From Escherichia coli 042 (lineage in GTDB: Bacteria; Pseudomonadota; Gammaproteobacteria; Enterobacterales; Enterobacteriaceae): a stretch of DNA of 64,000 nt. Below the pieces are notes generated by a model, which searched no databases, was not told the origin of the DNA, and saw only the letters and a program-made list of their open reading frames with translations. Where the stretch lies: NCBI RefSeq assembly GCF_000027125.1, contig NC_017626.1; one strand, written 5' to 3'. The first letter of the stretch is position 1. Every line of letters begins with the position of its first letter. The position numbers and the translations under genes were made by a program. This document shows positions 37,853-44,065 of the stretch, piece by piece.

Positions 37853-39001
37853 ATGTCCACGTATACCCGGCCTGTCATGCTTTTGCTGTCTGGCCTGCTT
37901 TTGTTGACTCTGGCGATCGCAGTGTTAAATACACTCGTGCCGCTTTGGCTCGCCCAGGAACACATGTCCACATGGCAGGTAGGCGTTGTCAGCTCATCCT
38001 ATTTTACCGGCAACCTGGTCGGTACATTGCTGACAGGGTATGTCATTAAGCGCATTGGCTTTAACCGCAGCTATTATCTGGCCTCCTTCATTTTTGCCGC
38101 TGGCTGTGCCGGCCTTGGCCTGATGATTGGATTCTGGAGCTGGTTGGCTTGGCGTTTTGTCGCCGGCGTCGGCTGTGCCATGATTTGGGTGGTTGTTGAG
38201 AGCGCGCTGATGTGCAGTGGGACGTCACGTAACCGTGGGCGTTTGCTTGCTGCGTATATGATGGTTTATTACGTGGGAACGTTTTTAGGCCAGTTACTGG
38301 TCAGCAAAGTTTCAACCGAGCTGATGTCCGTATTGCCGTGGGTTACAGGTTTGACGTTGGCAGGGATCTTACCGCTGTTGTTTACGCGTGTGCTGAATCA
38401 GCAGGCTGAAAACCATGATTCGACGTCAATTACGTCAATGCTAAAACTCCGTCAGGCGCGGCTTGGCGTGAATGGCTGCATTATCTCAGGAATCGTTCTG
38501 GGATCTCTATATGGCCTGATGCCGCTGTTCCTCAATCACAAAGGGGTGAGCAATGCCAGCATTGGTTTCTGGATGGCGGTACTGGTCAGTGCGGGTATCC
38601 TTGGACAATGGCCGATTGGACGTCTGGCGGATAAGTTTGGTCGACTGCTGGTGTTGCGTGTTCAGGTCTTTGTCGTCATTCTCGGCAGTATCGCGATGCT
38701 TAGCCAGGCGGCGATGGCCCCAGCGTTATTCATCCTCGGTGCCGCTGGCTTTACGCTATATCCGGTGGCGATGGCCTGGGCTTGCGAGAAAGTTGAACAT
38801 CATCAACTGGTGGCGATGAACCAGGCCTTACTGTTGAGCTATACCGTGGGAAGTCTGCTTGGCCCGTCATTTACTGCCATGCTAATGCAGAATTTCTCCG
38901 ATAATTTATTGTTTATCATGATCGCCAGCGTATCGTTTATCTATTTGCTGATGCTGCTTCGCAACGCCGGTCATACGCCGAAACCCGTTGCTCACGTGTA
39001 A
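37853..39001 (+). CDS. ycaD: MFS-family transporter
   Basis: 382 aa; 12 predicted hydrophobic segments; [48 protein letters not shown]... Confidence 0.86.
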
Positions 39002-39015
39002 ATGAATTCAAGCAA

Positions 39016-39049
39016 AGTGTGAACTTACTGTTTCACACTCTGCTTTTTT
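39016..39049 (+). terminator. Rho-independent terminator of ycaD
   Basis: Stem agtgtgaa/ttcacact (39016-39023 and 39032-39039) followed by ctgcttttttg. Confidence 0.7.
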
Positions 39050-39210
39050 GTTTCTTCTATCTGACTTGCTTTATTCCAAATTTTATTCGTTTAAAAATAA
39101 AATGTGCAGCAGGTTATAATTTTGCATTTCGCTATTTCCGCACTTCTTATTTGCCGCGCATAATCCCTCGTTTTACAGATGCCCCTTTAATTTTGGCGAA
39201 GGATTTGTCT

Positions 39211-40641
39211 ATGGCTGGGAATGTTCAGGAAAAACAGCTGCGATGGTACAACATTGCGCTGATGTCTTTTATCACTGTCTGGGGTTTTGGCAACGTTGTT
39301 AATAACTACGCCAACCAGGGGCTGGTGGTTGTTTTTTCATGGGTGTTTATCTTTGCGCTCTATTTCACACCTTATGCGCTAATTGTTGGTCAGTTAGGCT
39401 CGACCTTCAAAGATGGGAAGGGCGGGGTCAGTACCTGGATTAAACACACGATGGGACCCGGACTGGCTTACCTCGCCGCGTGGACCTACTGGGTAGTGCA
39501 TATTCCCTATCTGGCACAAAAACCCCAGGCAATACTGATTGCGCTCGGTTGGGCGATGAAAGGCGACGGTTCGTTAATCAAAGAATATTCAGTCGTAGCG
39601 TTACAGGGGTTAACGCTGGTGCTGTTTATCTTCTTTATGTGGGTTGCTTCACGCGGTATGAAATCGCTGAAAATCGTCGGTTCTGTGGCAGGGATTGCGA
39701 TGTTTGTTATGTCGCTCCTGTATGTGGCGATGGCGGTAACCGCGCCTGCAATTACTGAAGTGCATATTGCGACCACAAACATTACCTGGGAAACGTTCAT
39801 TCCTCATATCGACTTTACCTACATTACCACTATTTCAATGCTGGTTTTCGCGGTTGGCGGAGCAGAGAAGATTTCTCCTTACGTTAATCAAACGCGCAAC
39901 CCAGGAAAAGAATTTCCAAAAGGGATGTTATGCCTGGCGGTGATGGTTGCGGTTTGTGCCATTCTGGGCTCACTGGCGATGGGGATGATGTTTGACTCGC
40001 GTAATATCCCGGATGACTTAATGACTAACGGTCAGTATTACGCCTTTCAGAAGCTGGGCGAGTATTACAACATGGGTAATACTTTAATGGTGATTTATGC
40101 CATTGCGAATACCCTGGGACAAGTAGCTGCGCTGGTATTCTCGATTGATGCGCCGCTTAAAGTGTTATTAGGCGATGCTGACAGCAAATATATTCCAGCC
40201 AGTTTATGTCGTACCAACGCTTCTGGTACGCCCGTTAATGGCTATTTTCTGACCCTGGTGCTGGTGGCGATCCTGATAATGCTACCGACTCTCGGCATTG
40301 GTGATATGAACAATCTCTATAAATGGCTGTTGAATCTTAACTCGGTAGTGATGCCGCTGCGTTATTTATGGGTATTTGTTGCATTTATTGCAGTCGTTCG
40401 CCTGGCGCAGAAATATAAACCAGAATATGTCTTTATTCGTAATAAGCCTCTGGCAATGACCGTCGGGATTTGGTGTTTTGCCTTTACCGCCTTTGCCTGT
40501 TTGACGGGGATCTTCCCGAAAATGGAAGCCTTCACTGCAGAGTGGACCTTCCAGTTGGCGCTGAATGTTGCAACGCCGTTTGTGTTGGTAGGATTAGGAC
40601 TGATATTCCCGCTGCTGGCGCGTAAAGCGAATGGTAAATAA
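39211..40641 (+). CDS. ycaM: APC-superfamily amino-acid/polyamine transporter
   Basis: ORF 39019-40641; start refined to MAGNVQEKQLRWYNIALMSFITVWGFGNVV... (476 aa) preceded by aagga RBS; the 64-codon N-terminal extension in the ORF track is probably not translated. Confidence 0.82.
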   Translation: MAGNVQEKQLRWYNIALMSFITVWGFGNVVNNYANQGLVVVFSWVFIFALYFTPYALIVGQLGSTFKDGKGGVSTWIKHTMGPGLAYLAAWTYWVVHIPYLAQKPQAILIALGWAMKGDGSLIKEYSVVALQGLTLVLFIFFMWVASRGMKSLKIVGSVAGIAMFVMSLLYVAMAVTAPAITEVHIATTNITWETFIPHIDFTYITTISMLVFAVGGAEKISPYVNQTRNPGKEFPKGMLCLAVMVAVCAILGSLAMGMMFDSRNIPDDLMTNGQYYAFQKLGEYYNMGNTLMVIYAIANTLGQVAALVFSIDAPLKVLLGDADSKYIPASLCRTNASGTPVNGYFLTLVLVAILIMLPTLGIGDMNNLYKWLLNLNSVVMPLRYLWVFVAFIAVVRLAQKYKPEYVFIRNKPLAMTVGIWCFAFTAFACLTGIFPKMEAFTAEWTFQLALNVATPFVLVGLGLIFPLLARKANGK

Positions 40642-40803
40642 TTATTGTGGTCGGTGACGCTGACTCTGGCAGATCTGACCCGTTTTTACATAATCGAGAA
40701 ATGCGCGTAAGCCGCAGGACATATACTGGCGGTTTGGGTAATACATTTGGAAGCTGTGCTGTAAGGGCGTTAGAAATAGAGCTCTGAATTATTTATGCAG
40801 AGC

Positions 40804-40840
40804 GGAATAAAAAAGCGGCAACTCAAAAAAGTTGCCGCTT
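40804..40840 (-). terminator. Rho-independent terminator of pflA
   Basis: Stem agcggcaac/gttgccgct (40814-40822 and 40831-40839) with A-runs on the plus strand (T-runs on the minus strand), 11 bp after the pflA stop. Confidence 0.8.
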
Positions 40841-40850
40841 TACGGGGAAA

Positions 40851-41591
40851 TTAGAACATTACCTTATGACCGTACTGCTCAAGAATGCCTTTCACGCGTT
40901 CCATGGTCTCTTTCTTCGGTGGTTTAACACCATCAAGTTTGTATTCTTCACCCATCGCCACCCATTTGTGTTTGCCCAGTTCGTGGTAGGGGAGAAGCTC
41001 GATTTTCTCAACGTTGCCCATATCACGGGTAAATTCACCGAGGCGATGCGCTGAATCGTCATCGTCAGACCAGCCTGGGACAACAACGTAGCGGATCCAC
41101 ACCTTCACATTTTTGTTCGCCAGATATTTGGCGAACTCCAGTGTGCGGTGGTTGGAAACTCCAACCAGATTTTGGTGGATCTCGTCGTTCATCTGTTTGA
41201 GATCGAGCATTACCAGGTCGGTTACTTCCAGCAGTTCATCAATCACCGGATCGTAACGACGAACAAAACCGTTGGTATCCAGACAGGTATGAATGCCTTC
41301 TTTTTTGCAGGCGCGGAACCAGTCACGAACAAACTCAGCTTGCAGGATTGCTTCACCGCCGGATGCGGTAACGCCGCCGCCGGAAGCGTTCATAAAGTGG
41401 CGATAGGTCACCACCTCTTTCATTAAATCTTCAACGGTAACTTCTTTACCGCCATGCGTGTCCCAGGTGTCGCGGTTATGACAATACAGGCAGCGCATCA
41501 GGCAGCCCTGGAAAAAGGTGATAAAGCGAATACCCGGGCCGTCTACGGTTCCACAGGATTCAAAGGAGTGAATGCGACCAATAACTGACAT
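40851..41591 (-). CDS. pflA: Pyruvate formate-lyase activating enzyme (radical SAM)
   Basis: Start refined to [43 protein letters not shown] (CxxxCxxC radical-SAM motif); 246 aa. Confidence 0.94.
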
Positions 41592-41713
41592 TGCGGTGTT
41601 TCTCCAGATGTGGCCCATCTGAGGCCGTGTTGGTGCGCAGCTCGAAGGCTACGTCGAGTCTGTTTTGGCAGTCACCTTAAAGTATAGATAGCTGACAAAA
41701 AAGGCTCTCGTGC

Positions 41714-41743
41714 TAAAAAAGGCCCCACTTTCGTGGAGCCTTT
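41714..41743 (-). terminator. Rho-independent terminator of pflB
   Basis: Minus strand reads aggctccac-gaaa-gtggggcct followed by tttttt. Confidence 0.8.
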
Positions 41744-41782
41744 ATTGTACGCTTTTTACTGTACGATTTCAGTCAAATCTAA

Positions 41783-44065
41783 TTACATAGATTGAGTGAA
41801 GGTACGAGTAATAACATCCTGCTGCTGTTCTTTAGTCAGCGAGTTGAAACGTACTGCGTAGCCAGATACACGGATGGTCAGCTGCGGATATTTTTCCGGG
41901 TTTTCCATCGCGTCGAGCAGCATTTCACGGTTCATCACGTTAACGTTCAGGTGCTGACCACCTTCGATGGACGCTTCGTGGTGGAAGTAACCATCCATCA
42001 GACCAGCCAGGTTGGTCTTACGAACTTCGTCGTCTTTACCCAGTGCGTTCGGAACGATAGAGAAGGTGTAGGAGATACCATCTTTAGCGTAAGCAAACGG
42101 CAGTTTAGCAACGGAAGTCAGAGAGGCTACTGCACCTTTCTGGTCACGACCGTGCATCGGGTTAGCACCCGGTCCGAACGGCGCGCCAGCACGACGACCG
42201 TCTGGGGTGTTACCAGTTTTCTTACCATACACAACGTTAGAAGTGATGGTCAGAACAGACTGAGTCGGGATAGCGTCACGGTAGGTGTGCAGTTTCTGAA
42301 TTTTCTTCATGAAACGTTCTACCAGGTCAACAGCCAGGTCATCTACACGCGGATCGTTGTTACCAAACTGCGGGTATTCGCCTTCGATTTCGAAGTCGAT
42401 AGCCAGACCGTCTTCGTCACGAATCGGTTTAACTTTCGCATATTTGATTGCAGACAGGGAGTCAGCAGCAACGGACAGACCAGCGATACCACACGCCATG
42501 GTGCGGATAACGTCACGGTCGTGCAGCGCCATCAGAGAGGCTTCGTAGCTGTACTTGTCGTGCATGTAGTGGATGATGTTCAGTGCAGTGATGTACTGTT
42601 TAGCCAGCCAGTCCATGAAGTGATCCATGCGCTCCATCACTTCATCGTAGTTCAGGAGATCGCCTTTGATCGGCTCAGACTTCGGACCAACCTGCATTTT
42701 CAGTTTTTCGTCAACGCCACCGTTGATTGCGTACAGCATGGTTTTCGCCAGGTTTGCACGCGCACCGAAGAACTGCATTTGTTTACCAACGATCATCGGG
42801 CTTACGCAGCAAGCGATAGCGTAGTCATCGTTGTTGAAGTCCGGACGCATCAGGTCATCGTTCTCATACTGCAGAGAAGAGGTGTCGATGGACACTTTAG
42901 CGGCGAATTTCTTGAAGTTCAGCGGCAGTTTTTCAGACCACAGAATGGTCATGTTCGGTTCCGGAGACGGACCCATGGTGTACAGGGTGTTCAGGAAACG
43001 GAAGCTGTTTTTGGTAACCAGGGTACGACCGTCGAGGCCCATACCACCGATAGATTCGGTTGCCCAGATCGGGTCGCCAGAGAACAGTTCATCGTATTCC
43101 GGAGTACGCAGGAAGCGAACCATACGCAGTTTCATGACCAGGTGGTCAACCATTTCCTGCGCTTCTTGTTCGGTGATCTTGCCAGCTTTCAGGTCACGTT
43201 CGATGTACACATCCAGGAAGGTGGAGGTACGACCGAAGGACATTGCAGCACCGTTCTGAGACTTAACAGCAGCCAGGTAGCCAAAGTAAGTCCACTGGAT
43301 AGCTTCCTGAGCGTTGGTAGCCGGACCAGAGATGTCGTAGCCGTATTTCGCAGCCATTTCTTTCATCTGACCCAGAGCGCGGTGCTGTTCAGCGATTTCT
43401 TCGCGCAGACGGATAGTCTGTTCCAGGTTTACGCCGTTTTCCAGATCAGCCTGCAGAGAGGTGAACTGTGCAAGTTTGTCTTTCATCAGGTAGTCGATAC
43501 CGTACAGCGCAACGCGACGGTAGTCACCGATGATACGACCACGGCCATAAGCATCTGGCAGACCGGTCAGAACACCGGATTTACGGCAACGCAGGATGTC
43601 CGGAGTGTAAACGTCGAACACGCCCTGGTTGTGAGTTTTACGGTATTCAGTGAAGATTTTTTTGATCATCGGGTCCAGTTCGCGGTTGTACGCTTTGCAG
43701 GAACCTTCGATCATTTTGATACCACCGAACGGGATAAGAGCACGTTTCAGCGGAGCTTCAGTCTGCAGACCAACAACTTTTTCCAACGCTTTGTTGATGT
43801 AGCCAGCGTCGTGAGAGGTGATGGTGGAAGCAACAGCGGTGTCAAAGTCAACTGGCGCGTGAGTGCGGTTTTCCAGTTTAACGCCTTCCATTACTTTGTC
43901 CCACAGGGTGGTGGTCGCTTCAGTAGCGCCAGCCAGGAAGGACTCGTCACCCTCGTACGGAGTGTAGTTTTTCTGAATGAAGTCACGGACGTTTACTTCA
44001 TTCTGCCAGTCACCTTTGGTAAAACCTTCCCAGGCTGTGGCTAACTTTTCATTAAGCTCGGACAT
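41783..44065 (-). CDS. pflB: Pyruvate formate-lyase (glycyl-radical enzyme)
   Basis: 760 aa [44 protein letters not shown]...; C-terminal glycyl-radical motif RVSGYAVRF. Confidence 0.97.

Follow-up and report, generated by a model that had tools for sequence, protein, structure and literature searches.

A described counterpart of the locus considered here is that of Escherichia coli K-12, in which ycaM, the divergent ycaN, ycaK and pflA (b0899-b0902) follow one another. K-12 YcaN is a LysR-type factor whose gene deletion altered expression of ycaC, ycaD and focA; ChIP-exo sites were reported near ycaC and ycaD, and its physiological role is listed as unknown (PMC9068703). The DNA analysed here is a stretch of 64,000 nucleotides from E. 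coli 042 (NC_017626.1), called the window below. Around the locus, ycaC, ycaD, pflB and focA keep their K-12 order, and the flanks common to both genomes (ycaC, ycaD, ycaM, pflA and pflB) are 98% identical at the nucleotide level. Between ycaM and pflA, the window shares with K-12 the last 113 nt of ycaN and the pflA hairpin, but lacks ycaN codons 1 to ~265, the 99-bp divergent promoter region and most of ycaK. We are confident that this interval is what a deletion of 1,476 bp left behind, its endpoints lying on an imperfect 10-bp direct repeat, and that the deletion is old and not private to the isolate.

Content of the ycaM-pflA interval

The original prediction gave the K-12 order as ycaM, a divergent ycaN, ycaK and pflA, and the annotation of DH10B bears this out. 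Since this order is correct, there is a real difference from the window to be explained. The prediction also placed 209 bp between the ycaM and pflA stops. The interval, 40642-40850, measures exactly that, the two frames ending at 40641 (+) and 40851 (-) in the list of open reading frames (ORFs). The features of the region are as follows.

39211..40641, plus strand: ycaM, intact, APC-family permease of 476 aa (ORF list; tblastn; RefSeq annotation of identical loci, with the same start)
40642..40754, minus strand: 3′ remnant of ycaN, a LysR-type regulator gene, 113 nt that hold the stop codon and the 36-37 codons before it (alignment to K-12; tblastn)
40744..40753, no strand assigned: retained copy of the direct repeat, CATTTGGAAG, where collinear homology breaks; junction at 40753-40755
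40755..40764, plus strand: vestige of ycaK, its terminal 10 nt TGTGCTGTAA with the stop codon, TGCACTATAA in K-12 (alignment with the K-12, E. albertii and other Escherichia spacers)
40765..40801, no strand assigned: counterpart of the ycaK-pflA intergenic spacer, strongly diverged and rich in indels (alignment with Escherichia spacers)
40802..40841, minus strand: pflA intrinsic terminator, hairpin at 40841-40812 (terminator scan)
40851..41591, minus strand: pflA, intact, pyruvate formate-lyase 1 activating enzyme of 246 aa (NCBIfam PRK11145 equivalog, E 2.9e-158)

YcaM, labelled APC family permease in RefSeq, is 100% identical in amino-acid sequence to K-12 YcaM over its full length (tblastn), and its TAA stop occupies 40639-40641 in the ORF list. 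The mechanically called ycaM ORF reaches 64 codons further upstream, to a GTG at 39019, and this extension (39019-39210) overlaps the ycaD terminator hairpin; the ATG at 39211, as annotated, is the plausible start. PflA likewise shows 100% amino-acid identity to its K-12 homolog (tblastn). Since the PRK11145 profile covers residues 10-255 of the 255-aa pflA ORF, the gene is assigned to 40851-41591.

The ycaN remnant begins at the base after the ycaM stop, on the opposite strand and at the same position as ycaN in K-12. Its 113 nt are 96.5% identical to K-12 ycaN (L001 4843-4955, L001 being the K-12 locus), and tblastn matched YcaN residues 267-302 and the stop in frame, with 97% amino-acid identity over 36 codons. 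The minus-strand translation of the remnant ends in YYPNRQYMSCGLRAFLDYVKTGQICQSQRHRPQ followed by the stop, and in the other direction its reading frame meets a stop 3 codons past the junction. Full-length ycaN (~302 aa, with an N-terminal HTH and a LysR substrate-binding domain) was not found in the window, which holds residues 267-302 and the stop only; without start codon and HTH domain, the remnant is therefore a pseudogene fragment. PGAP calls the same 111 nt as an incomplete CDS devoid of its N-terminus in NY1601, EBJ003, O157:H7 BB24-1 and SMS-3-5.

No ORF (~196 aa) for ycaK, annotated in K-12 as an NAD(P)H oxidoreductase gene, was found, and K-12 YcaK gave no tblastn match in this region of the window, where 10 nt of the gene are all that can be aligned. 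The predicted absence of ycaN and ycaK thus holds in that neither the ORF list nor tblastn yields an intact copy, but a 3′ fragment of ycaN and the end of ycaK persist. The accompanying statement that the interval contains the pflA terminator only had to be abandoned, given the ycaN fragment, the ycaK end and the diverged spacer at 40642-40754, 40755-40764 and 40765-40801, respectively, which leave the terminator only ~40802-40841. This error matters because the ycaN remnant decides the interpretation. A cmscan of 38900-41900 (both strands, E<=1) gave no Rfam match in the interval.

The pflA terminator hairpin, AAAGCGGCAAC-TTTTTTGA-GTTGCCGCTTT, comprises 13 pairs (6 G-C) around a loop of 4, and TTTATT comes next, so that the minus strand at 40841-40812 displays the hairpin and T-run of a Rho-independent terminator. 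The stretch is 98% identical to K-12, where ycaK, too, ends just ahead of this hairpin. Following the deletion, ycaM points straight at it. On the plus-strand side only TTTA follows it, which makes termination of the ycaM transcript at this place uncertain, and in scar strains ycaM transcripts may read into pflA in the antisense direction.

Extent of the deletion and its junction

Homology with K-12 stops at L001 4954-4955 (window 40753-40754) and returns near L001 6432. The in-frame tail of ycaN and the retained ycaK stop region argue strongly for a deletion scar and not for a locus that never held the pair. The 1,476 bp removed comprised the 5′ 796 nt of ycaN including the HTH domain, the divergent ycaN-ycaK promoter region and ycaK except its last 10 nt.

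Short direct repeats had been proposed as the mark of such an event. At the K-12 breakpoints, GATCTGGAAG (L001 4945-4954) and GATATGGTAG (L001 6421-6430) are equal at 8 of 10 positions, so that a repeat is indeed present in imperfect form, but no exact repeat longer than 5 nt occurs there, the exact matches being of 5 nt only (GGATA, TAGAT). Because the endpoints sit on this imperfect 10-bp repeat, replication slippage or illegitimate recombination at short homology would be the most likely mechanism. Slippage is only suggested, since the breakpoints carry no perfect direct repeat and the parental allele was not observed.

To the right of the junction, ~47 bp (40755-40801) cannot be aligned to K-12 by megablast and show ~60% identity, against 98% in the flanks; homology to K-12 does not clearly return before about 40795-40802, immediately upstream of the hairpin of the pflA terminator. 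The spacer sequence of the window is TAAGGGCGTTAGAAATAGAGCTCTGAATTATTTATGCAGA. We considered 40755-40801, left unaligned by megablast and by global alignment to K-12, as foreign filler, and dropped this idea because E. albertii and three other Escherichia loci align there as the end of ycaK and the ycaK-pflA spacer. Over the ~60 bp at the junction, the window agrees with K-12 in 32 of 53 aligned bases (11 gap columns) and with E. albertii in 44 of 59 (2 gap columns), estimates which carry a large error since the diverged island is only that long. Of the four differences between the ycaN remnant and K-12, three also fall within 17 bp of the junction.

The junction island looks like an old haplotype linked to the indel and lying between flanks homogenised by recombination, and would illustrate how an indel can shield adjacent bases from such homogenisation. 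The ~60% identity beside the junction speaks against a recent deletion from a K-12-like allele and requires an old or imported one. Either the scar is older than the E. coli phylogroups, in which case E. albertii may have it through common descent or exchange, or this short segment of ~60 bp evolves unusually fast.

Alleles among complete E. coli genomes

The original prediction called for alignment to K-12 and to a wide panel of E. coli genomes. We compared K-12 and searched 5,426 complete E. coli genomes; the difference is real, and three alleles were counted.

3,323 of 5,426 genomes: intact ycaN-ycaK (K-12, the B derivative C43(DE3), O104:H4 HUSEC2011, O103:H2)
1,029 of 5,426 genomes (about 19%): contiguous scar of the window type (O157:H7 BB24-1, SMS-3-5)
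1,047 of 5,426 genomes: ycaD adjoining pflA, without ycaM, ycaN or ycaK (Ecol_542, L004 6947-7042; CFT073, L091 21203-21298; M1/5)

A 103-bp probe over the diverged spacer detects the scar allele in 1,021 genomes. The diverged stretch is confined to these deletion-type genomes, and an intact ycaK joined to a window-type spacer was found in none of the 5,426; the direct parent of the deletion is therefore not observed. The pair is missing from ~38% of complete E. coli genomes. Of the strain- or lineage-specific deletion originally envisaged, the deletion stands, in view of the remaining ycaN tail and ycaK stop, but strain specificity does not, the junction recurring in 1,029 genomes. Nothing was found in favour of an assembly artefact or a lesion private to the sequenced isolate; as the identical junction recurs in 1,021-1,029 independently sequenced complete genomes of wide host and geographic origin, we regard this as next to impossible. 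The scar is a common, ordinary gene-content polymorphism, visible already in public genome annotations.

O157:H7 belongs to phylogroup E, SMS-3-5 to F, K-12 to A and CFT073 to B2, IAI39 and SMS-3-5 both being reference genomes of phylogroup F. Phylogroups E and F of E. coli are not sister groups. The phylogroup spread was judged from named strains of A, B2, E and F. In the window, O157:H7 BB24-1 and SMS-3-5, the junction is equal base for base, with 3 to 6 SNPs across the spacer. With the scar in E and F, the intact pair in A and the ycaD-pflA allele in B2, the alleles look old and structured by phylogroup, not strain-specific.

By their gene content, the scar strains are natural ycaN ycaK double nulls. 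The two genes are accessory, and lineages could be told apart inexpensively by the three-allele pattern. Regulatory conclusions drawn in K-12 (e.g. PMC9068703) are not transferable to O157:H7, phylogroup F (SMS-3-5) or B2 (CFT073).

Other rearrangements were observed in and around the locus. In the K-12-type strain EC96 (NZ_CP060748.1), IS1 copies interrupt ycaN, another independent route to its loss. In TUM11352 (L006 1-7000), a P2-like prophage with tail genes and ogrK adjoins pflB, pflA and its upstream side being replaced there. E. coli E69 (CP089930.1, L009 8626-14984) has neither pflA nor pflB within 6 kb downstream of ycaM; AT-rich sequence and two large ORFs, of 782 and 446 aa, take their place. 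In IAI39 and SMS-3-5 (L088, L089 and L090), the region at 2.15-2.2 Mb in K-12 (mdtABCD, baeSR, gat, yeh) lies at ~0.95-1.0 Mb, and the pflA region of SMS-3-5 is at 2.24 Mb in inverted orientation, which indicates a large inversion relative to K-12 common to both strains; SMS-3-5 also carries IS4 between ycaL and aroA. RefSeq marks pflB, and likewise lpxK, as frameshifted pseudogenes in CFT073 (L091 22231-24514), and these frameshifts may well be sequencing errors of an old assembly. Finally, between 7 and 13 matches to the ycaM-pflA region are on records labelled plasmids.

Other Escherichia, outgroups and the age of the scar

The outgroup search was anchored on YcaD and covered 80 loci from species-representative genomes. 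Beyond typical E. coli, ycaN remnants were found in Escherichia only: in E. albertii NBRC 107761, Escherichia sp. E1V33, MOD1-EC7003 and SCPM-O-B-8794, the last of which is labelled E. coli and has flanking genes ~5% diverged. These four scars resemble that of the window in their succession of ycaM, a ycaN 3′ fragment, the ycaK end with spacer, and pflA, the gap spanning 213-244 bp. The window and E. albertii have their junctions in one register and share the indel pattern of the spacer. In L007 and L011 the ycaN side of the scar is shorter by 5 bp, whereas the L008 scar keeps 157 nt of ycaN and has lost the ycaK stop. Given this layout, the L008 scar neither derives from a window-type scar nor is its parent, so that at least two independent deletions took place and the pair was lost recurrently.

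These relatives raise the question of whether the deletion allele, instead of descending vertically within E. coli, came by homologous recombination from a diverged, E. albertii-like Escherichia lineage, or belongs to a polymorphism predating both species, the intact pair of phylogroups A and B1 being the other arm. The common register and indel pattern are what such an origin would leave, as are the greater proximity of the spacer to E. albertii than to K-12, the clustering of remnant differences next to the junction as in an old-haplotype island, and the presence of the scar in the non-sister groups E and F. An identity of 75% to E. albertii is, however, not close, and as deletion recurs at the same short homologies (demonstrated by L008, possible for L007 and L011), the shared register could be convergence. 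We hold this origin to be possible but unlikely. A particular form of it, to which we would give slightly less credence still, is that the scar and the intact A/B1 pair are the two arms of a polymorphism that predates E. coli, the scar being common to E. albertii by descent or introgression and the intact pair being kept by balancing selection or brought back by re-import. Were this true, and were YcaN to act on ycaC, ycaD and focA, the three alleles could mark phylogroup-specific wiring of the formate/pyruvate formate-lyase neighbourhood. The one mildly interesting aspect is that the scar looks old and shared with other species.

Further afield, 70 loci from outside Escherichia were searched between ycaM or ycaD and pflA for traces of YcaN (tblastn, E<=0.1) or YcaK, and none had any except L057. 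This locus, from Enterobacteriaceae bacterium 89 (L057 9234-11673), has a ycaN/ycaK-like pair adjoining pflA (68% and 60% amino-acid identity) and a second LysR gene, without ycaM; it is the sole intact pair outside E. coli among the loci fetched. Across Enterobacteriaceae (L007-L086), the ycaD/ycaM-pflA interval is a cargo hotspot ranging from 43 bp to 5.8 kb. Its cargo includes a Gly/Asn-rich secreted protein of ~170 aa (Enterobacter, Leclercia), a secreted protein of 264 aa (Citrobacter sedlakii, Intestinirhabdus), a PTS and transketolase cluster (Klebsiella, Raoultella) and LysR genes. In many genera ycaD adjoins pflA directly, or 0.6-5.8 kb of unrelated cargo lie between the two.

The second explanation offered in the original prediction was that the window shows the ancestral state, its lineage never having had ycaN-ycaK, and that the K-12 lineage gained the pair by insertion. 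The neighbourhood at large lends itself to this idea: in Salmonella enterica subsp. diarizonae, the Citrobacter freundii group, Kluyvera, Yokenella and others, 50-215 bp separate ycaM and pflA and no trace of YcaN is seen; the cargo of the ycaD-pflA interval varies between genera; and the GC content of ycaN (46.6%) and ycaK (42.8%) is below that of the window (51%). Lower GC is the only island-like trait of the pair, no mobile gene being annotated between ycaM and pflA in K-12. The idea fails for the window itself, since 36 in-frame YcaN codons, with 97% of their amino acids identical, and a ycaK stop region are incompatible with it; the short allele keeps the ends of both genes and is no clean empty site. 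We consider it highly improbable there, although it is partly true on a wider scale, as ycaM and pflA do adjoin without ycaN trace outside Escherichia. Insertion may account for the gain of the pair by the Escherichia ancestor, not for the state of the window, which we continue to read as a deletion scar. Gene distribution thus suggests, as the parsimonious account, that the pair was gained at a variable spot in an Escherichia ancestor and then lost repeatedly.

Among described alleles, the scar of the window is the same as the pseudogene allele of O157:H7 BB24-1, SMS-3-5, EBJ003 and NY1601 in junction, remnant length and spacer, with 98.6-99.8% identity over 1.9 kb; a few SNPs, e.g. at 40708, 40800 and 40826, separate it from O157:H7. 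The ycaD-pflA allele of B2 strains (CFT073, Ecol_542, M1/5) is another short allele of the same hotspot. It differs from the scar in that ycaM is also gone, no ycaN remnant is left and 8 nt (CTGTGCAC) stand between the ycaD and pflA terminators, but these two terminators are the same as those of the window.
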